A DNA stretch of 64,000 nucleotides from NCBI GenBank assembly GCA_017935905.1, contig JAGBGO010000035.1:36064-100063 (forward strand), given 5' to 3'. The first letter of the stretch is position 1, and the number at the start of each line of letters is the position of its first letter. The stretch comes from Clostridia bacterium (lineage in GTDB: Bacteria > Bacillota > Clostridia > UBA1212 > UBA1255). A program made the translations under genes and the position numbers. Positions 17,260 through 64,000 of this stretch are shown here, piece after piece. Below the pieces are notes generated by a model. That model was not told where the DNA came from. It did no database searches and worked only from the letters and a program-made list of their open reading frames with translations.

Positions 17260-17275
17260 ATACTCTCAACCTTCC

Positions 17276-17974
17276 TTATTCTGCCTGCAGTTCCTCCATA
17301 TCACCTTCTAAGAAGAAACTGTAGTATTGGTCTTTGCCGTAAATAATATGATCTGCCAGCACAATGCCCAGGATCTTACCGGCTTCTGCCAGCCGCCGCG
17401 TGGTTTCCCGGTCTTCTCGGCTGGGTGTACAATCGCCGCTTGGATGATTGTGCATCACCACCACGCCGGATGCCCGATTCACTACCGCCGGGGAAAAAAC
17501 TTCCCTGGGATGTACGATAGCCCGGTCTACCGTGCCCACCGAAACCGTGACGTCTTTCAAAATCTGCCACTTCCGGTCTAACAAAACTACTTTGAAATGT
17601 TCTTGAGGCAAGTGCATTTCGCCGCTGTACAAAGAAGCCAACTGCTCAATGCTGCCAATCCTCGTTTTCTTTCCCACTTCACCTTTGGAAATTCGTCTGC
17701 CTAATTCAAAAGCAGCTAACAAGGTAACGGCTTTTGCAAAGCCTACGCCGGAAATTTCTGTCAGGGCCTGTACACTAAGCGCTCCTAATCCATACAGTCC
17801 TTCGCTTCTGGCCAGCACGTCTTGGGCCACCTCTACGGCGTTCCGCTTCCGATTTCCGCTTTTGAGTAAAATCGAAATCAGTTCCGTATCGGATAAAGTT
17901 TCCGGACCGTACGCTTCCAACCGTTCATAAGGACGAAGCCCTTCCGGAAGCGTCTTCATCGTTCTGCCGTCCAT
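17276..17974 (-). CDS. radC: RadC-family (UPF0758, JAB/MPN) protein
   Basis: It has an HhH N-terminal domain and the JAMM motif HNHPSG...D. Confidence 0.85.
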   Translation of the reverse strand: MDGRTMKTLPEGLRPYERLEAYGPETLSDTELISILLKSGNRKRNAVEVAQDVLARSEGLYGLGALSVQALTEISGVGFAKAVTLLAAFELGRRISKGEVGKKTRIGSIEQLASLYSGEMHLPQEHFKVVLLDRKWQILKDVTVSVGTVDRAIVHPREVFSPAVVNRASGVVVMHNHPSGDCTPSREDRETTRRLAEAGKILGIVLADHIIYGKDQYYSFFLEGDMEELQAE

Positions 17975-18103
17975 ATTCCACTCCTTTCCTTCTGTTCGGT
18001 TGCCGCCTGAAGGTCGTGTGTATTATGGAAATGCATACAATGTTAGTATACCTTTTTTACCCGAAAAACACAATACGTTTTTTGGACGCAGAACAGCCCG
18101 ATC

Positions 18104-18826
18104 TTATCGCTCCAACATGGTGCGAACCAACTCGTAGGCAAACATCCAATGAAGTTCCTTCGTAGGGTGGTTTACTTCGTTGGACAGCAGTTTGTTGGTG
18201 TTTACACCGCGGCTGCGCATAAGTTCCCACAAAGCGTGACAATCGCAAACGGGAACGTTCATCTCTCCGGCAATTCTCCGGGCACTGTCTAAGAACAAGC
18301 GAAGCAAGCCGTCCCGCTCCCCTTGGCTGACGGTCCGGATCACTTGTTCAATGGTTTCATTGGCATTGTGATAATCCGTATAATCCGAACGGGTGTTGGG
18401 CGTCATAAAGATCACTTCTGCGCCGGTTTCCTGAATGCGGGTAAAAATCTTCTTAAGTGCTGCTTCGTAAGCGGGCAAACGATCTGCACCTTCTGCCGCA
18501 TCATTCAAACCGAAGCATACAACCACCAGGTCAGGCTGATAACTAAGTACGTCCCGTTCCAAACGCTCCAAACCAAGTTCCGCGTTCTGACCGGAAATAC
18601 CGGCATTGATGATGCTCACGGGAACGGCAGGATACAACATACCCAGCAAGGTTTTTACTTTCGTTACGTATCCGTCTTCCGCACGAAACGCTGTCAAAAG
18701 CTGACCCTGCTCTACGTAAATTTCAAAGCAACCTTGCGTAACGCTATCGCCTAAGAAAGCAATCACCGGTTGACGGTTTTCATGCAGGCTGTTTTGCTTT
18801 GCAAGAATCTTATCTATAATTTTCAT
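18104..18826 (-). CDS. SGNH/GDSL-family hydrolase
   Basis: The GDSL block (IAFLGDSVTQG) and the D-x-x-H region near the C-terminus are present. Confidence 0.75.
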   Translation of the reverse strand: MKIIDKILAKQNSLHENRQPVIAFLGDSVTQGCFEIYVEQGQLLTAFRAEDGYVTKVKTLLGMLYPAVPVSIINAGISGQNAELGLERLERDVLSYQPDLVVVCFGLNDAAEGADRLPAYEAALKKIFTRIQETGAEVIFMTPNTRSDYTDYHNANETIEQVIRTVSQGERDGLLRLFLDSARRIAGEMNVPVCDCHALWELMRSRGVNTNKLLSNEVNHPTKELHWMFAYELVRTMLER

Positions 18827-51980: not shown

Positions 51981-53601
51981 GCCGTAGGTCCGCCAGTTCC
52001 TCCGGCTTTACCTTCTCCACCTGCCGATCATAGGTAATGAGACCGTTCACCTCATCCTCCACGTCGGAAATTTGGGTATATACCGCAGCGCACAAGCCCT
52101 TCTCTATCAAAGGCGCCACTTCCTCTAAATAAACTTTGCGCAAAGCCTGCACAAATTCTTCTCGGGACGTGCATTTTCCGTAGCCGTATTCCTTCTTGGG
52201 GTTAAACACGTGCCCTTCCACCTGATACGAATACCCGCCGAACTCCGACAGCACCAAAGGTTTTTTCCCTGCTTTCAAACGCACCTTGCGGAAATATACG
52301 TGGCGGCTGTCCACGTCTGAGTCCACCCCGGAGAACCAACCGGACGCCGTATCGATCACGCGGCTGTCGTCCAAGGTCTTGAGCCGCTTGTACATGGCCG
52401 TACCGCAGAACTGACCCCAGCCTTCGTTAAAAATGGTCCAATAGCAAATACAAGGATGATGATAAAGGGTTTCTACTGTCTCTACCATCGCCTGCTCAAA
52501 TGCCGCCCGGCTTCGCTTATTTCTGTGGAGCCACCGATCCGGAAGCCACTTTAAGCCAACCGTAGGCAGCACTGTATCCCGCAAGAAAGAATACGCGCCG
52601 TTATTTACCATATCCTGAAACACCACCATGCCTAAGCGGTCACAGGCATAATAAAATAACTGAGGCTCAATCTTAATGTGTTTGCGCAGCATATTAAAGC
52701 CAAGTTTCTTGGCAAACAGAATATCTTGTTCGTACGCCGTCGGACTGTTCGGCGTAAAAATGCCGTCTTGCCAATACCCCTGATCCAAAAGACCGTGGAA
52801 GAAATAAGGTTTCCCGTTGAGGCAAATCCGCGGATATCCGTCCACGTCCTTGATTTCAAGGGTACGCAGGGCAAAATAAGACTGCACCCGGTCCTTTCCG
52901 GTCTGAACGGTAAAATGGTACAAATAAGGATCCTCCGGAGACCAATTTCGCGGATTTGGAATCGGGATGCGGCAACTGCCATTTTCCAGTTCCACCGGCA
53001 CCATACTCTGAATTTCCACAACGCCCTCCGTAGCGCCGCTTACAGAAATTTCCACCCAATCTGCCCCATTTTTCACCCGAATTCCCTGAATATACACCTC
53101 CGGCACCGACTCCATCCATACCGTCTGCCAAATACCGGAAACCGGAGTGTACCACATGCCCCCACGTTTGCGGGTTTGCTTGCCGTAGGGCAAAATCTTC
53201 TTACTTAAATGATCCCGCACTTCCACCGTAAGCACGTTCTCCCCTTGCAGGAAATCGGTCACGTCAAAGGTAAAAGGCAGATATCCCCCTTCGTGGGTTC
53301 CCACCACCCGGCCGTTGACGTACACCCGGGCAATTTGGTCTACGGCGCCGAAATGGAGTAGCACACGGCTTTTCCGAAAGCCTTCCGGGAGGGTAAAATG
53401 CCTTTGATACCAAAGCACTTGTTCTTCCCGGTACACTTCTCCGGTGCCGGACAGTTTGGACTCCGGGCAGAAGGGCACTTGAATGGTTTGGTTATATTGG
53501 GGCTTGTCGCCTTCGTTGCATACATCAAAATCCCATGGACCATTGAGGCACAAAAAAGATTCTCTTTGCAAGGTAGGGCGAGGATATTGGTTCCAGTTCA
53601 T
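51958..53601 (-). CDS. Glycoside hydrolase family 2-like protein (beta-galactosidase/beta-glucuronidase type)
   Basis: The 547-aa protein has an N-terminal sugar-binding region, an Ig-like region and a TIM barrel, with the block YWTIFNEGWGQ. An AAAGGAGAT ribosome-binding site is present. Its 3' end overlaps the AraC gene convergently by 23 bp. Confidence 0.55.
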   Translation of the reverse strand: MNWNQYPRPTLQRESFLCLNGPWDFDVCNEGDKPQYNQTIQVPFCPESKLSGTGEVYREEQVLWYQRHFTLPEGFRKSRVLLHFGAVDQIARVYVNGRVVGTHEGGYLPFTFDVTDFLQGENVLTVEVRDHLSKKILPYGKQTRKRGGMWYTPVSGIWQTVWMESVPEVYIQGIRVKNGADWVEISVSGATEGVVEIQSMVPVELENGSCRIPIPNPRNWSPEDPYLYHFTVQTGKDRVQSYFALRTLEIKDVDGYPRICLNGKPYFFHGLLDQGYWQDGIFTPNSPTAYEQDILFAKKLGFNMLRKHIKIEPQLFYYACDRLGMVVFQDMVNNGAYSFLRDTVLPTVGLKWLPDRWLHRNKRSRAAFEQAMVETVETLYHHPCICYWTIFNEGWGQFCGTAMYKRLKTLDDSRVIDTASGWFSGVDSDVDSRHVYFRKVRLKAGKKPLVLSEFGGYSYQVEGHVFNPKKEYGYGKCTSREEFVQALRKVYLEEVAPLIEKGLCAAVYTQISDVEDEVNGLITYDRQVEKVKPEELADLRLTLGGLS

Positions 53602-53630
53602 CGTTTTATCTCCTTTGGTGGGATGGGTTT

Positions 53631-53660
53631 ATTGTACCACGACAGCAATGGGATGTAAAA
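53631..53660 (-). promoter_or_regulatory. Sigma-A-type promoter (TTTACA-18-TACAAT) for the GH2-like gene, embedded in repeat copy B
   Basis: On the minus strand TTTACAtcccattgctgtcgtggTACAAT lies about 30 nt upstream of the ribosome-binding site. Confidence 0.45.
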
Positions 53661-53760
53661 CGCAGAAAATCAACGAAAATATACATTTGGAAGTCCAAAT
53701 TGTATACAAATCGCCATTTTACCGTGAAAATATACCGGAATTTATGCAATCGTTAAAGTA
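53643..53760. repeat. Dispersed intergenic repeat, copy B
   Basis: It aligns with 37783-37915 at about 75% identity. Confidence 0.6.
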
Positions 53761-54200
53761 TCCCCCCGGACGTAACAAGGATCGTCACCGCCATAGTACA
53801 CAGACGTACCCCAAATGGGTACAAATTTTACAGAAATTTCCCGCTCCACAATCAAGGTAAAAGAAACCTTTTCACGGAAATCATTCTCAGCGTTATCGTC
53901 CACACCAATTTGCAGCGTATAATAACATTGATTACCAACCTCAATTTTGCAGAAACCGGTAGAGGCGGAACCTTCCACATACGACAAATTAACCGCATAC
54001 TGTCCCGGCGCTAACGTCATCGTGTTGGAAGTATAGAGATCTTCCTCTCCCTGCAAGATCTGAATATCCAAAGTATAGTTGGCAGCAACAATCCGGTTAC
54101 TGCCGGAATCTACACCGGCGGTAAAATACCCAAAGGCTGCAAAACTCATCGATGTGAGCAAAAGCACAATAGATACAAAAGAAAAATATATTTTTCTCAT
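53742..54200 (-). CDS. Small secreted protein (152 aa), last gene of the SipW/TasA-like operon
   Basis: The signal peptide is MRKIYFSFVSIVLLLTSMSFAAFGYFTAG. Its start overlaps the upstream gene in an ATGA arrangement. Confidence 0.45.
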   Translation of the reverse strand: MRKIYFSFVSIVLLLTSMSFAAFGYFTAGVDSGSNRIVAANYTLDIQILQGEEDLYTSNTMTLAPGQYAVNLSYVEGSASTGFCKIEVGNQCYYTLQIGVDDNAENDFREKVSFTLIVEREISVKFVPIWGTSVYYGGDDPCYVRGDTLTIA

Positions 54201-54826
54201 GCGGCACCCCCTTGCTGGGTCGCGCGAACAATCAACCCTAAATCTACTTCCGGCACCACTTCGCCTCGGTAATTCGCTTGGTTATCGACCTCTTCCGGCA
54301 TCCGTACGATAAGCGCCACGTATGCAGTTTCCTCGGCACCCAAAGAAGCCTTCTCCGAAGCATATTGATTTAATTCCATATTGGCATAGGCGCAGGCTCG
54401 CTCTCTTGTTCCCACAAGGGCATCCAGCGCGCCTTCGTCTGTGTCAGTCACCAAACCGAATTTCAAATAGTCCTGCAGGATAAACGGCTCTCCCATCATA
54501 TTCTCTGCCACGGTATATCCCGTCACGTTAACAGCAGTATAAAAATCAAAAGGTACAGTTCCCTTGTTCTCCACTTTCAAATAAACCACTTGCACGTAAC
54601 CGGGCTCATACAAAGCGTTGTCATCAAACACCTTTGTATCTGCCTCAAGCTCTTTATACGACCCATCCGCCTGCCTATAAGACACCTTCAACTCAAAATC
54701 TGCAAAATGGAACACGTTCTGTAATTCCGGCGTAGCATCAGAGAACCATGCAATGGAGGTACCGGCACCCAAAATAATCCATAACAAAATCAAGCCTACA
54801 CTGAGGGTAAAAGCAATTTTCTTCAT
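54197..54826 (-). CDS. TasA/camelysin-like protein with a SipW-cognate class signal peptide
   Basis: MKKIAFTLSVGLILLWIILGAGTSIAWFSDA has a motif matching the SipW-cognate signal (..GT.A.FSD). An AAGGAGGG ribosome-binding site is present, and its start overlaps the previous stop in an ATGA arrangement. Confidence 0.55.
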   Translation of the reverse strand: MKKIAFTLSVGLILLWIILGAGTSIAWFSDATPELQNVFHFADFELKVSYRQADGSYKELEADTKVFDDNALYEPGYVQVVYLKVENKGTVPFDFYTAVNVTGYTVAENMMGEPFILQDYLKFGLVTDTDEGALDALVGTRERACAYANMELNQYASEKASLGAEETAYVALIVRMPEEVDNQANYRGEVVPEVDLGLIVRATQQGGAA

Positions 54827-55467
54827 GCTTTTTCCCTCCTTTTTCGCAAGATAAACAGCAAGATTAACAGGAAACCCGCCCCACCTAAGATCGCAAACCA
54901 CAAAGGCCGATTAAAAGTATCGCCCGTAGGCGGCACCGGGTCGTCATTTTCCACTGGAAACTCCTCTACCTTAAATTCCCAATCCAAATAGCCGGTCTGC
55001 CCGCTATATTCATTGCCAAGGGTCACCGGCACCTCCAAAAGAACTTCCAGATTGACCACGCCGCCGGAATACAAAGTACCCAAGCAAACCCAATCGGAAA
55101 GTTGCGCCGTTTCGGAAGCTGCGCTGTCAAACATATACGCCATGGTATTGTCCGAAGCGGCCCGCACTTTCAGTCCCAACTGAGACAAAAATCCTTCCGA
55201 GCCCGCCTGCGCACCCAAGGCGCGCAGATAGATCTTTACTTTAACCTTCTTAGAGGCTTCATTTCGAACTGTAATGTTTTGTGTCAATGTATCCCCGGGC
55301 ATAACGTCCTTAAATGCAGGAAACAAATCCGTAGGAGACTGACTGCTGCCGGGGGTAAAAATAAATTCACCTGAATCTCCGGCATACGTGACGGAACTCT
55401 CCTTTGCCATAGTCGGCAGGCTGAAACACAGCAGCAATATGAAAATGATACAAAAAATTCTTCTCAT
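54823..55467 (-). CDS. Secreted protein with a C-terminal LPXTG-like sorting signal (VPPTG, hydrophobic segment, RKRREKA)
   Basis: It has a standard signal peptide and a beta-rich domain. The C-terminal tripartite cell-wall sorting signal is VPPTGDTFNRPLWFAILGGAGFLLILLFILRKRREKA. Confidence 0.5.
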   Translation of the reverse strand: MRRIFCIIFILLLCFSLPTMAKESSVTYAGDSGEFIFTPGSSQSPTDLFPAFKDVMPGDTLTQNITVRNEASKKVKVKIYLRALGAQAGSEGFLSQLGLKVRAASDNTMAYMFDSAASETAQLSDWVCLGTLYSGGVVNLEVLLEVPVTLGNEYSGQTGYLDWEFKVEEFPVENDDPVPPTGDTFNRPLWFAILGGAGFLLILLFILRKRREKA

Positions 55468-55479
55468 CTTGCCACCTCC

Positions 55480-56046
55480 TTATTCCATCGGCCAACCGGA
55501 AGCCGTATAGGTCTTTCCGTCCGTAATAGGATTATGCTCACTCTGAACTGCGTGGGCAGAAACCGTCAAGGACAGCGTCTTACCAATGTAACGATTATCC
55601 ACTTTATCCCCTACGATTTCCACATGGGAGAAAACGCAAGGCGTTGTTTCGCCCGGTGTTAAAATGCTTTTATAATAGTACCAGCCTTCATGAAACTCCC
55701 AATGCTCTGCGTCAATATTCAATTTGAAACAATCCTCTGCAGAAAGTTCTTGGGCATTCACGCCGTACACCACTTTGACCCGCAGGTAAAATGGGTGGGT
55801 GCACGTGTTCTCAATAGTCACTTCTTTGCTCACCACGTCGCCGGGAACAATGTACACACCCTCACTGGGAAACGCCGTACCTTGCTCTGTGGTTTCGTGG
55901 ATAATAAATTGGATTTCGCCGGAGGTCACTACGTTCGTAGCCTTTCCCACGGTAGAATAAAATGCAAGTGTGCCTTGTGCAAAGAAGGTCATCAAAATGG
56001 CCACCATTGCAATGGCGACAATTTTCAACTTCATACTTCTCAACAC
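55480..56046 (-). CDS. TasA/camelysin-like protein with a SipW-cognate signal peptide
   Basis: The N-terminus is MKLKIVAIAMVAILMTFFAQGTLAFYS. The protein is 188 aa. Confidence 0.5.
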   Translation of the reverse strand: MLRSMKLKIVAIAMVAILMTFFAQGTLAFYSTVGKATNVVTSGEIQFIIHETTEQGTAFPSEGVYIVPGDVVSKEVTIENTCTHPFYLRVKVVYGVNAQELSAEDCFKLNIDAEHWEFHEGWYYYKSILTPGETTPCVFSHVEIVGDKVDNRYIGKTLSLTVSAHAVQSEHNPITDGKTYTASGWPME

Positions 56047-56231
56047 AAAAACCTCCTTTATAATTTTAGTAGAAAAAGGGCATCAGACGATATTGGGGGA
56101 TGCATATCCAATGCCCTTTCTGCCTAAGAGATAATCCTCGGCAGGCAAAAAGTATAAATCTGAAAGAAGCAGGACTTATACCCTTTGCTTGCCGCCCAAC
56201 GCCTCGCAAGGCGTTGGGACGGGCAAAACAA

Positions 56232-58430
56232 TTATTTTACAGTAGCATTTTGAACATTGGAAGTTACAAGCGTACCAATATTCTCAGCAGTAAGAAGAAC
56301 ACCGTTCAACCGGCAGTTCTCAAAGGTAACCGCCGCACGAGGATCCATTGCAAAGCCTTCGCTGAAATCGCAATCTACAAAGGTTGTGGGCGCATAGGGA
56401 CGGCAGAACGCATAACCTGCACCCTTACCAAAACTACAGCCTGTAAATTCAGCATCGCCAATAGTTGCAGCATAACTGGTCCAACCATTGATAACACAGT
56501 TTGTAGCCGTTAAACCATTACCGGTTCCTTGATCACAACTAATTGTGTAGGTAGGACCATCAATGGTTACATTTTCCAAATAAACTCTGCTACCTGTAGC
56601 GTTGTGATTTACAAACACACCACGGAAACCTTTTGCAATTGTCAGATTTTTTATCGTGCCACCAGTGATATTAATGGCAGAATCCCATGTACTGGTTGCA
56701 CCATTAACAATCAAGACCTTACCATTTCCATCCAAAGTTTCACCATTTTTGATATTGAGACCGGTAGCGCCATATCCATTACTCTCACTGTCAGTGGTTG
56801 TAATATCACAATCGAGGATGATAAGCTGTGCATCTCCTTCCAATGCTTCTCTAAGTGCATCAGCATCTTTTGCATAAGCAATCATCGTCTCAGCACTCTC
56901 TATATCGTAACACTCATACCCGTCATTATCGATGTAAGGCGCTTTGATTGTAGACAACCCAAAATTGGCGACATTATCCCTGACTAATGTGTTGCATTTA
57001 GAAAGCGCATAGAAATTTCTAAGAGCAATTACAGTCATATCTCCAGCAAAGGTATTCAGGAAACTATTTTCCAGAACAGAAATCTTTAATGCATAAGAAC
57101 AAGAAGCATTGTTATGGGGTGTAACGACTACATTACCATTCATAAACGTATTACCAATTACAGAAACGTGACCCTGGGTAGCACCTACATACACAGCAGT
57201 ATTTACAGTTGTATCTGCGGTTCCAAAACTGTTGTTGATAATCTTAAATTCGCCTTTAAGCTGATAACCGGGATAGTACATATAAATATAATATAAGGCA
57301 TCCGTTTCAAAGGTACACCCATCAATAACAGCACCTTTCATACCGCCACTTTTACGATTTCTTTCATAGAAAACAACAGGAATATATTTACTGGAATCTG
57401 CAGGCTTTCCGGTAAAGGTACAATTGATAATTTGCAGATTATCTGCACCGTTTGCGCTGTTCTCGGCACCAGTCACATTGGTGTAAAGATCAAGTGCATT
57501 ATTGACGCCACTTGTTTTAGTCATACCGTACGCCATCTGAGCACCTGCCGCATCAAAGGTAATGCCAATCAACTTGCAATTATTCTTTGCATTGGCATTA
57601 ACATAGTCAACAACAGCAGAATTAGTAACCAGTGTCAAATCGTTTTGAGTCAGTGTAAGTTTGCCATATTGTCCATCAGACAATCCAATTACCATACCTT
57701 CTGTAGCTGTAGCAAGAATATCGTCAATGGTTTCAGGTGTAGCAACTACATCACAAGGCAAAGCATCTGCATCGTAATCATTACCGAAGGCATCATTCTC
57801 ATTGACATATTGAGTAGCTACAAGATTAATTCCTAATCTGATGGTAGGAACAACAGTCCCGGTCTTGTAATTTGCCTCATTACCAACGGTTTCAGGCATA
57901 TAAACTACCATGGAAATATAATCCGTATCATTGGTAGACTCCAGGGTAGAGCCTTTGGAAAATCCTGCCGAAATTACGTTGGCGTCTGTAATAGCAGCTC
58001 GTGCCTCATCCCGACTTGCAAAAGCTGTTTCTGTTTCAACAACACCAAATTGAATATAGTTAGAAAGCTTAAATTTCTCTCCCGAAACATTTGTGCCCAA
58101 TGTTTCAGAAATAACATTAATGCCCAAATGATACTTAAACGCCAGGGTACCAGCGTTTACCACTTTCAGATACACAACTTCTGTATGACCGGGTTCCCAA
58201 AGAGCCTCCGCATCAAATACGTTGGTATTCTCATCCACAAGTTTCCAATCCTTTGCGTCCGTGCTCCAATACAATTCTGCATCCAAATTACCGGACTTAA
58301 TAATATTATTGTTCGATGATACACTGTCTGTAAACCATGCAAAAGTAGTACCAACCAACATAGATACGCACATAACGAGTGCCAATGCACTCATCAATAA
58401 AGCACGTTTTGTGCTTTTTGTTTTTGTCAT
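56232..58430 (-). CDS. Large (732 aa) fusion of an N-terminal TasA/camelysin-like domain with a C-terminal right-handed parallel beta-helix (pectate-lyase-like) region
   Basis: The SipW-cognate signal is ALVMCVSMLVGTTFAWFTDS. A ~220-aa TasA-like domain follows. Then come many beta-helix rungs (..NCTFTG.., ..IINNSFG.., ..VIGNTFMNGN.., ..LENSFLN.., ..TGGTIKNLTI.., ..ATNCVINGW..). An AGGAGG ribosome-binding site is present, and its start overlaps the upstream stop. Confidence 0.55.
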   Translation of the reverse strand: MTKTKSTKRALLMSALALVMCVSMLVGTTFAWFTDSVSSNNNIIKSGNLDAELYWSTDAKDWKLVDENTNVFDAEALWEPGHTEVVYLKVVNAGTLAFKYHLGINVISETLGTNVSGEKFKLSNYIQFGVVETETAFASRDEARAAITDANVISAGFSKGSTLESTNDTDYISMVVYMPETVGNEANYKTGTVVPTIRLGINLVATQYVNENDAFGNDYDADALPCDVVATPETIDDILATATEGMVIGLSDGQYGKLTLTQNDLTLVTNSAVVDYVNANAKNNCKLIGITFDAAGAQMAYGMTKTSGVNNALDLYTNVTGAENSANGADNLQIINCTFTGKPADSSKYIPVVFYERNRKSGGMKGAVIDGCTFETDALYYIYMYYPGYQLKGEFKIINNSFGTADTTVNTAVYVGATQGHVSVIGNTFMNGNVVVTPHNNASCSYALKISVLENSFLNTFAGDMTVIALRNFYALSKCNTLVRDNVANFGLSTIKAPYIDNDGYECYDIESAETMIAYAKDADALREALEGDAQLIILDCDITTTDSESNGYGATGLNIKNGETLDGNGKVLIVNGATSTWDSAINITGGTIKNLTIAKGFRGVFVNHNATGSRVYLENVTIDGPTYTISCDQGTGNGLTATNCVINGWTSYAATIGDAEFTGCSFGKGAGYAFCRPYAPTTFVDCDFSEGFAMDPRAAVTFENCRLNGVLLTAENIGTLVTSNVQNATVK

Positions 58431-58450
58431 TTTATTTTTCCTCCTAATCA

Positions 58451-59137
58451 TTAAGCCTCAATGGCCATTCCAACAGTCGCGAAAGCTTCATACGCATTAT
58501 CGCCAACGTGCTCAGTCTGTACCGCCTGAGCCTTTACGTCAATTGCAAAACTGCCGCTAAACGCAGCCGCTTGTTCTCGCGTTAGGGACTCGGGAACCTT
58601 CACAGCGTTGAAGAGTACCAGATCTTCTTCGCTTTCAAGAATATCCGTATAGTACAGTACGTAGGTAACAGTATCTGTTTCGCCATTGATATCTTTCGAG
58701 ATATGATCCCATTTCGTTTCATCAAAACCAACAAAGACCGTGTTCATATCAATATCCAAGCCAACTGCATTGATCCATGCGGTCGCATCAGAAATCTTCA
58801 CAATCACACGAATGTATTGATCGTAATGACCCGTATTGGTAACGTGTGCAATCTTACTGAGTTCGTCACCGGGAAGAATATTCTCATAAACAAGGGACGC
58901 ATCTGTTCTCTCAACATCCTCGACTTCATTAAAGTCACCGTCGCCGTTAGAATCTTTCTGCTCCCATACATCTACAGAGAAAATCTTATCCGGCGTATTG
59001 TCCTCAGAATCAGCAACGAAGAATTCGTTGTACACGCTGTCCTTGTGTGAGAACCATGCGAGTGATCCCATAGAGAGAATGGCGATTAAGCATACTGCCA
59101 AAGCTGTTACAAAAACCTTTTTCTTATTGAACTTCAT
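58451..59137 (-). CDS. TasA/camelysin (peptidase M73 / CalY)-like protein with a SipW-cognate signal peptide
   Basis: MKFNKKKVFVTALAVCLIAILSMGSLAWFSHK is followed by a TasA-like beta-domain. The protein is 228 aa. Confidence 0.6.
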   Translation of the reverse strand: MKFNKKKVFVTALAVCLIAILSMGSLAWFSHKDSVYNEFFVADSEDNTPDKIFSVDVWEQKDSNGDGDFNEVEDVERTDASLVYENILPGDELSKIAHVTNTGHYDQYIRVIVKISDATAWINAVGLDIDMNTVFVGFDETKWDHISKDINGETDTVTYVLYYTDILESEEDLVLFNAVKVPESLTREQAAAFSGSFAIDVKAQAVQTEHVGDNAYEAFATVGMAIEA

Positions 59138-59193
59138 GTTATTTGCCTCCTTTCAATTCATTTTTCTATAAAACGGTGCATAAATCACCGATT

Positions 59194-59403
59194 TTACCGG
59201 TAAAATGGCAATAAAGATAACCACAATTCCCTTCTTTGCCAAATCCAGTACTGCCGTTCTTCCCCTTCCGTGCGGTCAATTTCCGAATTTACATACTGAA
59301 GCTCCCGGCAAAAATCTCTAATCCAAAGAACAAAGCCAACCAGCAAAAGAAAACCAAAACCGCCGCCAATGATGACTGCCAAAATTGCTACCATTTCATC
59401 CAT
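59194..59403 (-). CDS. Small single-transmembrane protein (69 aa)
   Basis: The sequence MDEMVAILAVIIGGGFGFLLLVGFVLWIR... has a ribosome-binding site 12 nt upstream. Its start overlaps the end of sipW. Confidence 0.3.
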   Translation of the reverse strand: MDEMVAILAVIIGGGFGFLLLVGFVLWIRDFCRELQYVNSEIDRTEGEERQYWIWQRRELWLSLLPFYR

Positions 59404-59935
59404 GCGTAGGCGGTACCTCCTTCTTCCGCTTGGCGATTAAATCCGGCAAGAAAACCACAAGAATCAGCGCCACACCGCCGGCCAGTACAAAATACATACC
59501 CGGTGGATTTTGAATAAACTCTGCCACGTATCCCAAATAGGGAATACTGAATTGAGGTACACCGATTACGTTGTTGTAATGCACCGGGGAAGAATCCACC
59601 GTATTGTTAGCGTCACCTTTGGTGTAGAACACTTGCTTCTCTGTATCGACTTCTACAACCCGATGCGTTGCCACCACTAAATTCTCATTTAAGATAAACG
59701 TAATGGGGTCACCCACTTGAATCGTGCTTTTGTCTTTCACGGTTTTTACGTAGATCAAATCGCCTGCGCTGTACGTAGGCTCCATACTGCCGGAAAGCAC
59801 GTTAAACACCCGGTACCCTAATATTCGGGAACCCATCAAGAACACGGCACATAACACCACCAGCACAACGATTACAGTAGACACACTATTCCAAATGCGC
59901 TTTGCACGCTTCTTCGTTCTCTCATTCATAGTCAT
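59396..59935 (-). CDS. sipW: Signal peptidase I, SipW (archaeal/eukaryal S26B) type
   Basis: It has an N-terminal transmembrane helix, the catalytic Ser block VLSGSMEPTYSAGDLIYV, the His/Asp region GDANN and a C-terminal transmembrane helix. Confidence 0.8.
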   Translation of the reverse strand: MTMNERTKKRAKRIWNSVSTVIVVLVVLCAVFLMGSRILGYRVFNVLSGSMEPTYSAGDLIYVKTVKDKSTIQVGDPITFILNENLVVATHRVVEVDTEKQVFYTKGDANNTVDSSPVHYNNVIGVPQFSIPYLGYVAEFIQNPPGMYFVLAGGVALILVVFLPDLIAKRKKEVPPTHG

Positions 59936-60617
59936 CCGTTCCTTCCCGGATTTCTTTCTCCGCAAGTTGCGCTTTCAAGGCTTCCAACTCTGCCAGCACA
60001 CGGGCACTTTCTTCCCGTTCTTCTGAAAGCTTTTGTCGCTCCGCTTCCATCTCCGCCATTTGCTCCTGTTTATATTTTCGGAACAATTGAATACAACGAA
60101 AGCCCTGATAGAGAATCAGCAACATAAAAGGCACAAAGATACAAAGCATATAGCCTTGGGTGGTTTTCATAAAGTTGAAGAATGTTCCCACATCAGGAAT
60201 GTGACCGGTGTACTTACCCAAAATATAAGGGTACGTAACAATAGTCGCATCATCGGTGTCTGTGGTAGTACCGTATGTAACAAATCCCGGATTCCCTTTG
60301 GCATCCGTGGTTTTGCGCCGAATTTTATGGGTAATGGTTTCTCCGAAACTTTCGCTGTCTTGTGAAATAAACGTAATAATGTCCCCTTCTTTCAGGGTGG
60401 ACGGGCTCACTTCTTTCACAAAAATCAAATCGCCGGCATCAAAATCCGTTTTGCTCATAGAGTCTGTCCGTACTACAAATGCTTTGTATCCAAACAAACT
60501 GCGATCATTTCGGTTGAAAGTGGTTACGGAAATAACGGTAAAAATCATCATACACACCGCAACTGCCACCACAATCCACACCAGTACTTTTCGAACAATC
60601 CCCAATATCTTTTTCAT
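59922..60617 (-). CDS. Second SipW-type signal peptidase I paralogue with a C-terminal coiled-coil extension
   Basis: The sequence is MKKILGIVRKVLVWIVVAVAV...VVRTDSMSKTDFDAGDLIFV...; it has a second transmembrane helix and an acidic coiled-coil tail (EQMAEMEAERQKLSEEREESARVLAELEALKAQLAEKE). Confidence 0.7.
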   Translation of the reverse strand: MKKILGIVRKVLVWIVVAVAVCMMIFTVISVTTFNRNDRSLFGYKAFVVRTDSMSKTDFDAGDLIFVKEVSPSTLKEGDIITFISQDSESFGETITHKIRRKTTDAKGNPGFVTYGTTTDTDDATIVTYPYILGKYTGHIPDVGTFFNFMKTTQGYMLCIFVPFMLLILYQGFRCIQLFRKYKQEQMAEMEAERQKLSEEREESARVLAELEALKAQLAEKEIREGTDDYE

Positions 60618-60630
60618 GCAAAATTCCCCT

Positions 60631-60789
60631 CTATTTATCGTTCTTTTGCGCCAAACTTTCTGATAACTTTTCAAAAAACGCTTCGGTTTCTTCTTTGGAC
60701 GTCTGCTGGTCGCTCTCACAGTTCGGACAAATCATTCGCCCCTCCGGAACCGGGACTCCGCAACAGACACAAATATCTACATCGTTCAT
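60631..60789 (-). CDS. 52-aa Cys4 zinc-ribbon protein, first gene of the operon
   Basis: The sequence is MNDVDICVCCGVPVPEGRMICPNCESDQQTSKEETEAFFEKLSESLAQKNDK. An AGGAAG ribosome-binding site is present. It lies 13 nt upstream of the second sipW start. Confidence 0.45.
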   Translation of the reverse strand: MNDVDICVCCGVPVPEGRMICPNCESDQQTSKEETEAFFEKLSESLAQKNDK

Positions 60790-60817
60790 TTATCCACACC
60801 ACTTCCTTACCTGTTGG

Positions 60818-61091
60818 CACATAATGATTATTATGTTGTATGAGAGGTAACTTGTTTCTGAAGCAATAACGTTTTTATGCGTTCCGACAAAATATAAAGG
60901 TATAGAAAAATAACCTTTCCTTAGAAATTCAAAGGCAAGGTTTCACTCATATTACGTAATTGTTGTATTTTTTGTAAACTAATTATAGAATTAGTTGATT
61001 TCTTCAAAAAGGTATGCTATTATACGGCACACGAATGGCATATTCGTGTGTCTTCGTATGTATATACTTACAACATAATAATCATTATGTG
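60818..61091. promoter_or_regulatory. Putative invertible (phase-variable) promoter segment bracketed by perfect 23-bp inverted repeats
   Basis: The left inverted repeat CACATAATGATTATTATGTTGTA is at 60818-60840. The right copy at 61069-61091 is its exact reverse complement. The 228-bp AT-rich core contains sigma-A-like promoters in both orientations. On the minus strand TTTACA-18-TAATAT lies at 60949-60978. On the plus strand TTGATT-17-TATTAT lies at about 60996-61024. A hairpin is at 61028-61050. The tyrosine recombinase gene abuts the right inverted repeat. Confidence 0.55.
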
Positions 61092-61096
61092 TTCTT

Positions 61097-61918
61097 TTAC
61101 AGCAACAATCTCAAATTTTCCATTCTTTTTTGATGTTCATATCCGGTTGTCATAATATAAATTCTGGTCGTATTGATATTGGAGTGCCCCAGTATATCCG
61201 CAAGCTTTGCAATATCTTTTTCAATACCGTAAAATGTCCGGGCAAATAAGTGCCTTAAATTATGAGGAAAAACTTTCTCCGGAGCTACGCCGGCCTGCTT
61301 ACACAGATGTTTCATTTCTCGCCAAATATTGCTACGGCTGATGGGTTTACCGTTACGGGTGGTAAAAATCATACCGGTCTGAATACCCTGTCTGGCAATA
61401 TATTGCTTCAATTTGTCCCTTAATTCCCGCACAAGAAAGATTTTTCGTATCTTACCCTTGCAGGAAACCATTGCCTCTCCCTTCTTCACTGCTTCTACCG
61501 TGATGGCGGAAAGCTCACTGACGCGAATGCCGGTGGCACAAATGGTTTGCACAATCAGGGATAAGCGCCTGTTCTGCTGTCGTTCCGCCGCGCGAACCAA
61601 TCGGAAATATTCCTCTTTCGTCAGTTCTTTTTGGGCAGGACAATAGGCTTCTTGCTGGATTTTGTACTGTTTCACGCATAAATGATGCCTGCCGGCGAAA
61701 CGCAAATAACTGTTTAGGGATGCAATCATAGAGTTTGCACTGCGTACAGCGTACTGCTCGCCCAAATGTTTTTTGTAGTTAAGAATGTCTTGTTTGACGG
61801 GAACTTTATCCCCCATATATTGCATAAAGTATCGGATGTCTCTTAGATATTTTTCAATCGTTGCAGGACTTTTTTCATCCTCTTGCAAAAATTGTTTAAA
61901 TTGTTCGATCGTTGTCAT
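61097..61918 (-). CDS. Tyrosine site-specific recombinase (XerC/D-integrase family), candidate invertase for the adjacent switch
   Basis: The catalytic signature is R (TGIRVSEL) ... HNLRHLFA ... LGHSNINTTRIY. The protein is about 274 aa. An AAAGGAG ribosome-binding site is present. Confidence 0.8.
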   Translation of the reverse strand: MTTIEQFKQFLQEDEKSPATIEKYLRDIRYFMQYMGDKVPVKQDILNYKKHLGEQYAVRSANSMIASLNSYLRFAGRHHLCVKQYKIQQEAYCPAQKELTKEEYFRLVRAAERQQNRRLSLIVQTICATGIRVSELSAITVEAVKKGEAMVSCKGKIRKIFLVRELRDKLKQYIARQGIQTGMIFTTRNGKPISRSNIWREMKHLCKQAGVAPEKVFPHNLRHLFARTFYGIEKDIAKLADILGHSNINTTRIYIMTTGYEHQKRMENLRLLL

Positions 61919-61984
61919 GCCAATCAACTCCTTTATTAATTGATACTTTTATTATTATAGGTTTGAAAAATAATTTCAATACAA

Positions 61985-62013
61985 TTGACTTATTAGACAA
62001 CTATTGCTATAAT
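61985..62013 (+). promoter_or_regulatory. Sigma-A promoter TTGACT-17-TATAAT for the pgmB-GH65 gene
   Basis: It is a near-consensus promoter about 40 nt upstream of the AAAGGAG ribosome-binding site and ATG at 62055. Confidence 0.6.
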
Positions 62014-62054
62014 GCACTTGTTTAATAAAAATTGGCCAAAAGGAGTTTTTTCTG

Positions 62055-64000
62055 ATGAGAAATTACAACATTAAAGCTGCGCTGTTCGATTTGGATGGCG
62101 TGATCGTGTTTACCGACAAATATCACTATTTGGCATGGAAGCAATTGTCCGACGAGCAGGGCTGGGATTTCAATGAAACTGTCAACAACCGCCTGCGGGG
62201 CATTCCCAGATTGGCTTCCTTAGAAGAGATTTTGAAGCACAACAACATTGATCTTCCTTTGGAGGAGAAGATTGTGCTGATGAACCGGAAGAATGATTAT
62301 TACGTAAAGCTTTTAGAGCAGATCAATCCCGGGGACGTTTATCCGGGTTCTGTGGAGTTTATTAAGAAACTGCGGGAAAGAGGCATTCTGATTTCCCTTT
62401 GTTCTTCCAGCAAGAACGCGCCCTTGGTGTTGGAGAAGTTAGGTCTTACAGAATTGTTTGACGCCGTTGTGACCGGTCACGATATTAAGAACGCAAAGCC
62501 GGATCCGGAGATTTTCTTACTTGGCGCAAAACGTCTGAATATGCCCGTATTCCACTGCGTTGTTTTTGAAGATGCCAAAGCCGGCATTGAAGGTGCCCGG
62601 GCGGCCCGCATGAAGACCGTAGGTGTGGGAAACAAAGAAGAAACAGAGAAGATTGCGGATACGTTCATTATGAACTACGACGAAATCGACGTGGAAACGT
62701 TCTTGGAGTCGGGACGGAAACAGCCTTTGCCGGTACATGAAACCAAGATTATTGAAACCGAGTTTAATCCTTACGATACAGGCCATATTGAAAGTGTTTT
62801 TGCATTGGGTAACGGATACATCGGTCTTCGGGGTACCTACGATGAAACGGACGAGGGCAGCAAGAGTTTGCCGGGGATGTATTTGAACGGCATTTTCTGT
62901 ACCAGAGAACTGAATCACCTTTTCCCCTTTCCGCTCCACTCCACCCACGACCAGTACACCATCAACTTGTCCGATTGGCGTATTTTCAATTTGTTTATTG
63001 ATGGAGAAAAGGCTTGCTTCTCCAAGGAGAATATCAAAGAACACCGCCGTGAATTGGATATGGTAAGAGGCGTCATTGAGAGATCTTTTGTATTTGAGAC
63101 TTCCACCGGCAAGAAAGCACAGGTACAGAGCCTTCGCATGGTAAATATGGACGAGGTACACGGTGCACAAGTTCAGTACAGTGTAACGCCCTTAAACTTT
63201 GACGGAGAAATCGTCATCAAGTCCGAAGTGGTGAAACTCACCGGCACTTGGGATTTGTGGCCTTGCGTGCTGGCTTCCGAACAGGATACGGACGGCATTT
63301 ACAGTTTCATTCAAGAAGTGACCACGACCAAACAGCGCGTCGCCTGCGCCGTTGCCCACACGGTGGGCGGTGCATCTAACGTTCGCGGGGAAAATAGTGA
63401 AAACTGTTACACCACCGTAATCACTGCAGATGCAAAGCGAGGCGTACCCGTAACGGTTTCTAAATACGTTGCTTTTAGTTGCACCATGGACAAGAGCGAA
63501 GATATGGAAGGGGATGCCCGCCGTTTGGCTGCTGCCAATCGGGATGCCGGCATGGAAGTGCTGGCGGCTCGCCAGGCTGCTTTCTGGAAGAAACACTGGG
63601 AGAACGGCGATATCATCGTAGAAGGCAACCCCGCCGACCAACAAGCCATCCGTTATAGCTTATTCCAGCTTCGTCAGCAATTAGCAACCATTAACCAAAG
63701 CCCCATCGGTGCTACAGGTCTTACAGGTCTGAATTACAGCGGCAAGGCATTCTGGGATACGGAAATGTACTTGATGCCTTATTACAATTTTACCCAGCCG
63801 GAGACGCAGAAAGAGTTGATTTTGTACCGTTACAAGACGCTCCCCAGAGCTCGCCAGCGTGCAAAAGAGTACGGTCTGTGCGGCGCCATGTATCCTTGGT
63901 GCGGTATTGACGGTGAAGAAACTTCCGTTGTATTCGAGGCTTCCACCGCAGAATACCACTTACACAGCGATATTGCTTACTCCATCTGGCGTTACTACGA
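62055..64000 (+). CDS. Fusion of beta-phosphoglucomutase (HAD) with a GH65 disaccharide phosphorylase (maltose/kojibiose/trehalose phosphorylase type). Partial; it continues past the window end.
   Basis: The N-terminal ~215 aa are HAD beta-PGM (AALFDLDGVIVFTDKYH...KNAKPDPEIF...FEDAKAGIEGARAA). They continue without a stop into the GH65 N-terminal domain (FNPYDTGHIESVFALGNGYIGLRG) and the catalytic domain (GLNYSGKAFWDTEMYLMPYY; EYHLHSDIAYSIWRYY). Confidence 0.8.
   Translation, partial: MRNYNIKAALFDLDGVIVFTDKYHYLAWKQLSDEQGWDFNETVNNRLRGIPRLASLEEILKHNNIDLPLEEKIVLMNRKNDYYVKLLEQINPGDVYPGSVEFIKKLRERGILISLCSSSKNAPLVLEKLGLTELFDAVVTGHDIKNAKPDPEIFLLGAKRLNMPVFHCVVFEDAKAGIEGARAARMKTVGVGNKEETEKIADTFIMNYDEIDVETFLESGRKQPLPVHETKIIETEFNPYDTGHIESVFALGNGYIGLRGTYDETDEGSKSLPGMYLNGIFCTRELNHLFPFPLHSTHDQYTINLSDWRIFNLFIDGEKACFSKENIKEHRRELDMVRGVIERSFVFETSTGKKAQVQSLRMVNMDEVHGAQVQYSVTPLNFDGEIVIKSEVVKLTGTWDLWPCVLASEQDTDGIYSFIQEVTTTKQRVACAVAHTVGGASNVRGENSENCYTTVITADAKRGVPVTVSKYVAFSCTMDKSEDMEGDARRLAAANRDAGMEVLAARQAAFWKKHWENGDIIVEGNPADQQAIRYSLFQLRQQLATINQSPIGATGLTGLNYSGKAFWDTEMYLMPYYNFTQPETQKELILYRYKTLPRARQRAKEYGLCGAMYPWCGIDGEETSVVFEASTAEYHLHSDIAYSIWRYY

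Follow-up and report, generated by a model that had tools for sequence, protein, structure and literature searches.

A putative adhesin-displaying subunit of a SipW-dependent, TasA/BsaA-type fibre operon in gut Clostridia

Introduction

To date, TasA-type fibres have been recognised chiefly as scaffolds of the biofilm matrix. In the TasA/TapA/SipW system of Bacillus subtilis (PMC9674648; PMC10151520), export relies on a dedicated SipW peptidase and SipW-type signals, the jelly-roll subunit TasA, a single 26-kDa domain, carries an N-terminal donor strand, and fibre nucleation and anchoring are attributed to the minor strand-donating protein TapA. The clostridial sipW-bsaA-bsaB-bsaC operon of Clostridium perfringens (PMC7395162; PMC11580942) encodes BsaA-family subunits and BsaC, a large accessory protein whose von Willebrand A domain is of a binding type; in most strains it also encodes a BsaB-like protein with an LPXTG motif. 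For TasA-superfamily (AbpX/AbpA/Tafi) loci in archaea and a few bacteria, donor-strand subunits of major and minor kinds have been described at the level of prediction, together with a structurally variable tip protein, a signal peptidase of their own (SPase I) and LPXTG or SLH cell-wall anchors (bioRxiv 10.64898/2026.01.04.697558; PMC9245690). Tip proteins and LPXTG anchors in such loci have thus already been published as predictions, which limits the novelty of the system presented here.

Pectate-lyase-like right-handed beta-helices serve for binding, not catalysis, in the SRRP binding region of Limosilactobacillus reuteri (5nxk) and in PfbA of Streptococcus pneumoniae (3zpp/4mr0), both LPXTG-anchored monomers with SecA2/Sec export. 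In Bacteroidota, accessory/tip subunits of type V (Mfa/Fim) pili combine an N-terminal donor-strand-exchange pilin module with an extra C-terminal domain. Demonstrated DNA switches upstream of surface-structure operons, such as fimS of Escherichia coli with FimB/FimE and the RecV-dependent switches of Clostridioides difficile (PMC5914908; PMC5903667), consist of a few hundred bp between short inverted repeats and lie next to a tyrosine recombinase.

Herein, we analysed B732, a gene within a 64-kb stretch of Clostridia DNA (the window). We favour, with a probability of about 0.55, the reading that its product is a modular subunit of a phase-variable, SipW-dependent donor-strand fibre of the TasA/BsaA type that displays an adhesin on gut Clostridia.

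Results

B732 is an intact gene

B732 (56232..58430, minus strand; stop codon at 56232-56234) encodes a 732-aa SipW-dependent protein with a TasA-like domain and a double beta-helix. The ORF including the first ATG runs over 56232..58451 (minus strand) and would give 739 aa, but the ATG at 58430 was taken as the real start because AGGAGG lies 9 nt upstream and the equivalent Met is the start in all B732 homologues. Full-length homologues with 37-60% identity and 93-99% coverage were found in dozens of independent assemblies; more than 30 of them keep the same domain order in independent samples and hosts, and an independent ENA record contains a partial protein (P0001) that is 100% identical to B732. 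The AF2 model was confident and continuous, with a mean pLDDT of 84.

A join of two genes by a sequencing frameshift, which had been named as a possible refutation, is ruled out by the uninterrupted ORF, its own RBS and the full-length homologues. An assembly or annotation artefact of any kind, whether a frameshift join or a chimeric contig, has nothing in its favour beyond the unusual length and composition of B732, and given the same evidence together with the continuous model and the identical ENA protein, its probability is negligible. An origin from a phage tailspike or a plasmid was also rejected, as tblastn gave no match among 50,697 phage and 72,556 plasmid records.

A SipW-type signal precedes a TasA-like domain

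A SipW-cognate signal had been proposed for the N-terminus, and it was borne out by TIGR04088, whose match to aa 24-56 of the 739-aa ORF (25.1 bits) exceeded the cut-off of 19. The signal peptide occupies aa 1-31 (58338..58430, minus strand), and cleavage would fall at MLVGTTFA / WFTD, with the cleavage and donor strand of TasA (PMC9674648) as the model.

The mature protein starts with a donor-strand-like segment (WFTDSVSSNNNIIKSGNLD), which together with the TasA-like jelly-roll domain makes up aa 32-210 (57801..58337, minus strand), as assigned from PF12389, Foldseek and paralogy with the operon protein E209. [quoted passage not shown] AF2 left this segment mostly disordered, with pLDDT mostly below 50 (residues 31-53 of the 739-aa ORF). 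The domain behind it was modelled as a jelly roll at pLDDT 80-91, and Foldseek matched the B732 model to the TasA fibre subunit 8aur_A (probability 1.00, E 2.4e-3, 227 columns) and to archaeal AbpA 7ueg (probability 0.97).

The PF12389 scan gave a match to B732, but its 21.5 bits were just below the cut-off of 22.5 and it covered only the first part of the domain (aa 15-105, profile positions 3-78). Among the full-length homologues, 29 of 31 matched PF12389 (E<0.01), and several exceeded the cut-off, including P0059 (29.6 bits), P0050 (26.9 bits) and P0148 (36.6 bits), the last over profile positions 3-193 of 196. The TasA/camelysin-like domain put forward in the sequence-only reading was confirmed by the fold match to 8aur_A. 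The likeness to TasA itself is detectable only via Pfam and fold, and a profile search of PDB sequences from B732 did not reach TasA. BLASTP aligned the TasA-like domain with stand-alone E209 at 34% identity over 208 aa (E 2e-34).

A conserved carrier bears interchangeable passengers

Behind the TasA-like domain lies an acidic junction, E-x-D-[SA]-F-G-x-D-Y-D-x-D-A-L-P (aa 211-227; 57750..57800, minus strand), recognised by homologue conservation. It is almost invariant in the homologue alignment (A1), was modelled in B732 at pLDDT <50 (AF2), and falls at about aa 215 in 104 of 120 homologues regardless of passenger type. Together, the signal, the TasA-like domain and the DSFGxDYD junction make up a carrier that hundreds of gut Clostridia genomes encode; carrier and junction are common to those 104 relatives, while the passengers differ and include Beta_helix, LRR_5, Pectate_lyase_5, NosD and M26_N domains. 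Across hundreds of proteins, the carrier (55-70% identity) is better conserved than the passengers, as would be expected for an assembly interface.

The carrier family is not rare. At least 569 B732 relatives were found in GTDB species genomes and database matches numbered 3442, with generic NCBI labels. A fusion of TasA-like domain and beta-helix had not been recognised as a described architecture. Our literature searches found no paper on this particular family and nothing specific on PF20585/DUF6562, but in public data the fusion is abundant. Unlike single-domain TasA, the TasA-like domain of B732 carries about 520 aa of beta-helix behind the junction. The AbpX/AbpA/Tafi descriptions do not cover this gut-Clostridia family, nor do they contain the junction motif, swappable passengers, a module shared with Bacteroidota or a recombinase switch.

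The passenger consists of two beta-helices

The AlphaFold check that had been suggested showed TasA-like and right-handed parallel beta-helix folds, not an unrelated fold. The beta-helix region of about 500 aa is of the pectate-lyase type, as had been read from the sequence, but it is not one continuous run, being divided into two domains at about aa 228-519 and 520-732. Beta-helix 1 (aa 228-519; 56874..57749, minus strand) is capped by a helix at its N-terminus and shows N-x-F motifs in its rungs. The terminal module (aa 520-732; 56235..56873, minus strand), a widely shared C-terminal module, has a cap helix of its own, directly followed by a short low-confidence stretch; these last ~210 aa are very conserved and were modelled at pLDDT 95.6.

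The beta-helix fold is mostly found in enzymes (lyases, hydrolases and tailspike depolymerases), which counts against an adhesin. B732 might instead be a fibre-tethered or secreted polysaccharide-degrading enzyme, with one or both beta-helices acting as lyases or hydrolases on dietary, mucin or matrix polysaccharide and the TasA-like domain merely immobilising the enzyme on the matrix fibre. The top structural neighbours agree with this, being PL6/PL1/PL3 lyases, GH28/GH87/GH110 enzymes and phage depolymerases, and the N-terminal cap is weakly similar to that of chondroitinase B. The residues D282, K289, D/E363, R366, D/E377, K/R478 and Y356 are conserved in beta-helix 1, where the charged ones would fit a catalytic site, and in the terminal module several D, R, W and Y residues are invariant (TWDS, RPY). 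However, identity to those enzymes is 10-20%, and no CAZy-type family of Pfam or NCBIfam matched B732. Scans for Beta_helix, Pectate_lyase_3 and NosD had been proposed as a check on the beta-helix; they did not support it at the family level, since PF13229 Beta_helix, PF12708, PF05048 NosD and the PL families gave no match on B732 at E<=1 in Pfam and NCBIfam. The terminal module alone likewise lacked a beta-helix or lyase family match in both databases, and the PF13229 matches in 7 of 31 homologues sit in a different C-terminal module. Moreover, sister proteins bear clearly non-enzymatic passengers (LRR_5) in the same place, and the family nearest to the terminal module carries an adhesive annotation in Pfam. 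We consider an enzyme less likely than an adhesin, though it deserves more weight than the other alternatives. As binding beta-helices, SRRP and PfbA are only 13-16% identical to B732 and have no fibre-subunit fusion.

The nearest family in question is PF20585 Pectate_lyase_5, described as a 'putative pectate lyase-like adhesive domain'. It did not match the terminal module of B732 (gathering score 24.3), but on proteins whose module is 62-71% identical it scored 23.7-30.9 bits over the first half of the module, indicating that the module family straddles the PF20585 threshold.

The terminal module is shared with Bacteroidota

About 1,200 cluster representatives contained the terminal module at E<=1e-10, and it was at the extreme C-terminus in 154 of 182 proteins. 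Lipoproteins of Bacteroidota end in the same module with 61-71% identity. One of them, P0199, has a C-terminus 66% identical to the last 208 aa of B732 and an N-terminus matching Mfa_like_1 (E 2e-19), and its gene lies between Mfa_like_1 genes in a type V pilus operon. Among the best representatives (150 listed, 135 of them newly returned), 56 of the 135 had Bacteroidota-type lipoprotein N-termini and 53 of the 135 had SipW-type ones. Only this module is common to B732 and the Mfa/Fim subunits, which differ in their unrelated pilin fold family, lipoprotein export, protease-driven assembly and Gram-negative envelope.

B732 occupies a variable slot in a putative fibre operon

Besides B732, the operon comprises a pair of SipW genes, four genes for small TasA/BsaA-like proteins and one for an LPXTG-type protein; all lie on the minus strand, are co-directional and partly overlap. 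The SipW-like signal peptidases are encoded by sipW1 (59922..60617; 231 aa, with a charged coiled-coil-like C-terminal tail) and sipW2 (59396..59929; 177 aa), both also called as genes in locus L084. They matched TIGR02228 with 67.3 and 104.4 bits, respectively (cut-off 51.85), and the SipW equivalog NF046067 with 80 and 112, both below its cut-off of 190. A 69-aa membrane protein (59194..59403), an ORF with a gene call in L084, comes next, followed by A228 (58451..59137), a small SipW-signal TasA/BsaA-like subunit with weak TIGR04090/TIGR04088 matches and orthologues at the same position in related operons.

On the other side of B732 lies C188 (55480..56046), a small BsaA/TasA-like subunit assigned from PF12389 (21.6 bits), TIGR04090 (E 1.5e-7) and synteny; no other gene of the operon is as well conserved (68-74% in relatives), and C188 is a candidate shaft subunit. 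D214 (54823..55467) has an ordinary signal peptide, a beta-rich domain, a PPTGD motif, a hydrophobic TM segment and a basic RKRREKA tail. With a TIGR01167 LPXTG_anchor score of 17.1 bits (cut-off 15.9) and orthologues of 51-64% in related operons, it is a candidate cell-wall anchor; no sortase gene (TLxTC ORF) was found within the 64-kb window. E209 (54197..54826), the stand-alone paralogue of the B732 TasA-like domain, truly starts at M26 in an ATGA overlap with the D214 stop and has orthologues of 45-58% in related operons. The last small subunit, F152 (53742..54200), is an ORF with a SipW-like N-terminus and orthologues in loci L027 and L033. In related operons, a variable slot with 1-3 large carrier-type genes is enclosed by the conserved core of sipW1, sipW2, A, C, D, E and F.

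The intergenic region between B732 and the next subunit gene (56047..56231, minus strand) is strongly structured (MFE -73.5 kcal/mol, z -5.7), and 5 related loci retain its long hairpin, which shows 4 compensatory pairs; Rfam gave no match over 53000-64000, the hairpin region included. The locus in the window is flanked by sugar-metabolism genes, and at L001, a related locus, TnpV, relaxase and ParB are close by.

This operon differs from the TasA system in its pair of SipW genes, its four small paralogues and its LPXTG-type anchor. It is like the C. perfringens operon in its BsaA-family subunits, but the accessory domain is a double beta-helix in B732 and vWA in BsaC; in B732 the passenger forms one protein with a complete TasA-like domain, and BsaC was compared by its vWA description. 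That operon also suggests another reading, in which B732 would be a surface or secreted monomer that is never polymerised, its TasA-like domain would be a stalk or a SipW-recognition/folding module, and the co-located small subunits would make a separate fibre. BsaC is secreted as a monomer, apparently independent of BsaA oligomers, and BsaB is absent from long oligomers (PMC11580942). Nevertheless, the B732 carrier is a full paralogue of stand-alone E209, donor-strand-like N-terminus included, it is better conserved than its passengers, and pilin-type carriers of Bacteroidota bear the same terminal module. We hold a monomer to be rather improbable.

A putative invertible element lies upstream of the operon

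Perfect 23-nt inverted repeats (60818-60840 and 61069-61091) around 228 nt form a putative invertible element (60818..61091) upstream of the operon. It is 6 nt from the stop of a gene for a 273-aa tyrosine recombinase located immediately upstream (61097..61918, minus strand; PF02899 and PF00589 on the identical protein). Recombinase orthologues (50-66%) occur on the same strand and in the same position at 16 loci, of which 15 have the repeat arrangement, with perfect repeats of 15-25 nt, gaps of 216-275 nt and the core ACATAA-N5-6-TTATGT. Between the related species-level loci L010 and L033, the interior of the element is inverted and the flanks are collinear.

All three assemblies of the window's own species, including two further ENA contigs with an identical recombinase, have the segment in one orientation, and the opposite orientation did not turn up for this species when JGI metagenome contigs were scanned with the exact arms. 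Inside the segment, the promoter search gave one sigma-70-like site per strand, not above chance. Literature searches found neither invertons linked to sipW nor the core ACATAA-N5-6-TTATGT and its association with SipW/TasA-like operons, and invertible-element control is not reported for the C. perfringens bsa operon. The fimS and RecV-dependent switches are demonstrated, whereas the B732 element is known here from its arrangement in the DNA. Operon expression is probably phase-variable through inversion of the 228-nt segment by the adjacent recombinase.

Discussion

The architecture of SipW signal, TasA-like domain and pectate-lyase-fold beta-helix stood up to analysis, and of the two roles first suggested, fibre-tip adhesin or matrix-remodelling enzyme, the adhesin is best supported by the context. 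This is because the same operon contains the stand-alone pilin-domain paralogue E209, an LPXTG-type anchor and two SipW genes, because the slot holding B732 varies between related operons, and because type V pilus proteins of Bacteroidota also carry the terminal module.

In this fibre-adhesin model, one of the two SipW peptidases would remove the B732 signal after Sec export and expose the N-terminal strand WFTD...SGNLD. This strand and the TasA-like jelly-roll domain would integrate B732 into a fibre of C188, E209, A228 and F152, most likely as the first-assembled distal (tip) subunit, as TapA or AbpB are thought to act, and the PPTGD protein D214 would tie the fibre base to the cell wall. 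Since B732 combines a donor strand with an acceptor domain, its place could be at any point of the fibre rather than at the tip. The acidic junction would join the pilin module to the passenger, beta-helix 1 may be a stalk or a second binding surface, and the terminal module would be the business end, most likely binding a glycan ligand common in the gut. Inversion of the 228-nt segment by the tyrosine recombinase probably switches the whole operon. Counting against the model are the lack of a sortase in the window, the single orientation of the element, the PF12389 score below threshold and the PDB profile search without TasA.

A broader proposal is possible but more tentative. The ~210-aa module may be a plug-in unit at the distal end of unrelated donor-strand fibres, SipW/TasA-type in Clostridia and type V Mfa-like in Bacteroidota, exchanged between the phyla and borne in Clostridia on a dedicated carrier for swappable cargo that is phase-variable via a conserved inverton. 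Exchange of the module between Clostridia and Bacteroidota at 61-71% identity would imply a shared, important gut ligand.

Little is understood, to our knowledge, of the attachment of gut Clostridia (Oscillospiraceae, Acutalibacteraceae and relatives), which are abundant and for the most part uncultured, to mucus, food particles or other cells. If the proposed readings are true, TasA-type fibres would have a further role in these bacteria, as phase-variable stalks on which interchangeable adhesins are displayed, and one adhesin module would be a common currency between two dominant gut phyla. The 210-aa module would then be a concrete target for ligand hunting, with Hydrogeniiclostridium mannosilyticum ASD2818 as a cultured organism whose related locus (L035) contains the recombinase, the repeats and six large TasA-fusion genes, and metagenomic surveys of phase variation would gain a new class of inverton-controlled surface structure.

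Gene model and predicted structure of B732

An uninterrupted ORF was found at 56232–58451 on the minus strand, amounting to 739 aa when counted from the first ATG. AGGAGG lies 9 nt ahead of the ATG at 58430, and the equivalent Met is the start in every full-length homologue, indicating that the 732-aa protein at 56232–58430 (B732), as proposed in the sequence-only reading, is the correct gene model. That reading described a SipW-cognate signal, a TasA-like domain and a single long beta-helix region. The signal was recognized by NCBIfam TIGR04088 (25.1 bits, cut-off 19). Pfam PF12389 (TasA/camelysin) scored 21.5 against a cut-off of 22.5, the match being limited to the first part of the domain; this threshold, narrowly missed by B732, is reached within its family. 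No beta-helix, pectate-lyase or NosD model of Pfam or NCBIfam matched at E ≤ 1, and sequence searches of the PDB returned only weak pentapeptide-repeat matches near the C-terminus. Thus, the sequence-family tests alone were nearly negative.

An AlphaFold2 model built on an alignment of 31 full-length homologues had a mean pLDDT of 84. In the numbering of the 739-aa ORF, an N-terminal signal helix was followed by an unstructured stretch (residues 31–53) covering most of the mature N-terminal segment, a beta-sandwich (~57–215), a low-confidence acidic junction (218–229), a first beta-helix (~235–528), a cap helix (530–538), a short low-confidence stretch (549–553) and a second beta-helix reaching the C-terminus. 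In Foldseek searches of the PDB, the N-terminal domain matched the TasA fibre subunit (8aur_A, probability 1.00) and the archaeal bundling pilin AbpA (7ueg, probability 0.97), and the remainder matched PL6 lyases and chondroitinase B. These fold matches confirmed the SipW/TasA-like/beta-helix architecture, except that the beta-helix region comprises two domains instead of one. In the predicted model, it belongs to the pectate-lyase-like fold by structure only.

Operon organization

All genes from 60789 down to 53742 were on the minus strand and tightly packed, in the order of a 52-aa zinc-ribbon ORF, two SipW-like peptidases, a 69-aa membrane protein, A228, B732, a 185-nt structured gap, C188, D214, E209 and F152. 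A228, C188, E209 and F152 are small TasA/BsaA-like subunits, and D214 is a candidate LPXTG-type anchor. The zinc-ribbon ORF (60631–60789, minus strand) contains two CxxC pairs (MNDVDICVCCGVPVPEGRMICPNCES..). It comes first behind a putative invertible segment, ahead of sipW1, and gene calling in two other assemblies (L084 and L085) also recovered it. The peptidases scored 104 and 67 bits with TIGR02228 (cut-off 51.85); the first (59922–60617, minus strand) bears a highly charged, coiled-coil-like C-terminal tail of ~55 aa (..KQEQMAEMEAERQKLSEEREESARVLAELEALKAQLAEKE..), which the second lacks, and two SipW paralogues per operon are kept in relatives. C188 gave BsaA-family and PF12389 matches below threshold. 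D214 (54823–55467, minus strand) combines an ordinary signal with a PPTGD/TM/basic sorting signal, with TIGR01167 (LPXTG_anchor) above its cut-off; despite this, no sortase-like (TLxTC) ORF was found anywhere in the 64-kb window. The start of E209 overlaps the D214 stop by ATGA. Signal, fold and operon are all those of the TasA-type fibre superfamily. The feature is real, and its architecture was correctly read.

Related loci had the order sipW1, sipW2, A, slot, C, D, E, F, with identities of 68–74% for C, 51–64% for D and 45–58% for E, and between one and three large carrier-cargo genes, unequal in length, filled the slot. Pilus operons with variable adhesins show this layout, in which conserved core genes surround a changeable slot for large multidomain subunits. 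Six large carrier-cargo genes form an array in Hydrogeniiclostridium mannosilyticum, where the locus of strain ASD2818 (L035, 7211–22390) contains a recombinase, inverted repeats, six genes of 504–728 aa with a TasA-like N-terminal domain, and one sipW; this cultured species is therefore a tractable organism for testing the system. At another locus, L001, TnpV, an HTH regulator, a relaxase and ParB (1840–2844, 16623–18208) flank the recombinase and operon, hinting at carriage on a mobile element; unlike L001, the window's locus is flanked by sugar-metabolism genes.

The 185-nt gap (56047–56231, minus strand) folds into four hairpins (MFE −73.5, z −5.7). A ~20-bp hairpin, GGCAAUCAAAGGG..CCUUUUGAUUGC, recurs in five related loci directly upstream of the C188 orthologue; four of its pairs are compensatory, and Rfam gave no match. 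Its role may be to terminate transcription partially, to stabilise the mRNA or to mark the edge of the variable gene slot.

A conserved carrier with exchangeable cargo

Among 8000 candidates scored in a search of 5.8 billion proteins, 3442 were relatives of B732. About 30 were full-length (37–60% identity, 93–99% coverage) and came from independent samples, and an independent ENA record (P0001) held a partial protein 100% identical to B732; B732 is thus not an artefact, such as two genes joined by a frameshift. At least 569 encoding loci were found in a scan of one genome per GTDB species. Among the loci listed, nearly all belonged to gut Clostridia MAGs of human, ruminant and rabbit origin (Oscillospiraceae, Acutalibacteraceae, Eubacteriales and Lachnospiraceae), with H. 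mannosilyticum as the one cultured species. The fusion is not rare. One full-length SipW/TasA-type homologue (48% identity, residues 1–734) lies in a bin labelled Bacteroidaceae (L046, CAVHCH010000020.1); mis-binning of the contig or a genuine transfer of the entire gene may explain it.

Most matches spanned only the first 30% of the query, at an identity (55–70%) above that of the full-length matches, and the motif D-[SAG]-[FY]-G-x-x-Y-D followed the TasA-like domain at about residue 215 in 104 of 120 such relatives. These results indicate that the signal, TasA-like domain and junction form a carrier whose cargo is exchangeable. Modules behind the carrier in these relatives included PF13229 Beta_helix, PF13306 LRR_5, PF20585 Pectate_lyase_5, PF05048 NosD and PF05342 M26_N. 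In B732 the junction reads E-x-D-S-F-G-x-D-Y-D-x-D-A-L-P (aa 211–227; 57750–57800, minus strand); it is the family's most conserved stretch, though modelled as disordered, and may bind Ca, latch subunits together or be a site of processing. E209, a stand-alone paralogue 34% identical to the carrier domain over 208 aa (E 2e-34), lacks the motif and ends at the exact point where the junction starts in B732.

The terminal module occurs in two phyla

In a search with residues 232–739 only, the last ~210 residues proved to be the most widely shared part of B732. This terminal module was 55–74% identical in ~180 retrieved proteins and lay at the extreme C-terminus in 154 of 182, whatever the middle region; short proteins of 440–460 aa consist of carrier and terminal module alone. 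Some proteins, including P0218–P0224, hold 2–5 copies, not always C-terminal, which fits poorly with a strictly terminal role. Against 1.84 billion cluster representatives, the module profile recovered 1707 members at E ≤ 1e-3, including 1225 at E ≤ 1e-10 and 713 at E ≤ 1e-30. Many carriers of the module were, unexpectedly, non-clostridial. Among the best 150 representatives listed, 135 were newly returned, of which 56 had Bacteroidota-type lipoprotein N-termini and 53 SipW-type N-termini.

The module of P0199 was 66% identical over 208 aa, and the first 400 residues of this protein are an Mfa_like_1 fimbrillin (E 2e-19). Its gene order (DUF5119, Mfa_like_1, P0199, Mfa_like_1) is that of a type V pilus operon. 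P0190, named a Muribaculaceae DUF6562 protein at NCBI, was 63% identical over 207 aa; DUF6562 has a weak Mfa2 match, and P0205 lies within an array of DUF6562 paralogues behind a DUF3575 outer-membrane protein. The Bacteroidota lipoproteins at L088 (3519–6119) and L086 (8001–10469) end in modules 63–66% identical to the last 208 aa of B732; L088 and contigs of the window's species stem from one metagenome study. Donor-strand pilin-type carriers of two phyla thus bear the same end module, which suggests exchange between the phyla. This placement is the strongest argument that the module may be a fibre-displayed functional head.

The sequence-only reading suggested a tip adhesin or a matrix-remodelling enzyme. 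Structural neighbours of the beta-helices include binding proteins and enzymes alike, so the fold gives no verdict. Conserved D282, K289, Y356, D/E363, R366, D/E377 and K/R478 in helix 1, together with W, D, R and Y residues that are invariant across the terminal module's relatives, favour or permit catalysis, but sister proteins hold non-enzymatic LRR_5 cargo in the same slot, and no CAZy-type family of Pfam or NCBIfam matched B732. Close relatives of the module fall on either side of the threshold of PF20585, annotated as a putative pectate lyase-like adhesive domain, although the module of B732 itself had no Pfam match to it. Judged from these comparisons and the mounting of the module on pilins, ligand binding seems favoured, and a catalytic, polysaccharide-acting role for the beta-helices is unlikely.

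A proposed fibre model

In TasA, residues 28–38, exposed by SipW cleavage, act as the donor strand by which the next subunit is completed, and TapA is thought to supply the first strand (PMC9674648). BsaA of C. perfringens polymerises in the same way, and, besides the large vWA protein BsaC, the bsa operon of most strains encodes a BsaB-like protein with an LPXTG motif (PMC11580942). A 2026 preprint reports TasA-superfamily loci that encode SPase I, minor subunits, predicted tip proteins of variable structure and LPXTG anchors, and in which donor strands carry an aromatic amino acid in position 2 and an acidic one in position 4 (bioRxiv 10.64898/2026.01.04.697558). Wang et al. suggested the TapA-like AbpB as a possible FimH-like tip adhesin (PMC9245690).

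Beyond the architecture, each step of our model is inferred. Because its predicted mature N-terminus, WFTDSVSSNNNIIKSGNLD, fits the TasA/BsaA/AbpX donor-strand patterns, we propose that B732 would be the initiating, distal subunit, donating its N-terminal strand to a shaft subunit, which would be E209 and/or C188. The fibre would be ended and anchored by D214, whose N-terminus is not of the SipW type, and the beta-helices of B732 would bind a ligand. The system would then work like donor-strand fibres of the TasA/BsaA/AbpX type with a tip protein. As B732 also has an acceptor domain, its lateral incorporation in the fibre is possible.

A probable invertible element upstream of the operon

A 273-aa tyrosine recombinase (PF02899 and PF00589) is encoded at 61097–61918 on the minus strand. 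Between it and the operon, perfect 23-nt inverted repeats (60818–60840 and 61069–61091), beginning six nt past the recombinase stop, enclose 228 nt. An orthologous recombinase (50–66% identity) occupied the same place in 16 of 83 fetched loci, 15 of which had perfect inverted repeats of 15–25 nt, 216–275 nt apart, with the common core ACATAA-N5-6-TTATGT. Between two Faecalimonas MAG loci (L010 and L033), the flanks were collinear and the enclosed segment was reversed (70% over 207 nt), which, on this comparison, is the signature of an invertible element. Whereas the segment is inverted between loci, three assemblies of the window's species had it in one orientation, and a metagenome scan for the other found nothing more; promoter prediction within the 228 nt gave no informative signal. 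Weighing the inversion against this limited signal, phase variation is likely, and the inverton is probably a switch for the whole fibre operon.

Our literature search found no paper on a TasA-like domain as a carrier for beta-helix or other cargo, on the acidic junction motif, on an end module common to Clostridia and Bacteroidota, or on a recombinase switch at a sipW operon. Tip proteins in TasA-superfamily loci are already a published general idea. The significance of the finding rests mainly on the cross-phylum module and the conserved inverton, and less on the fusion as such.
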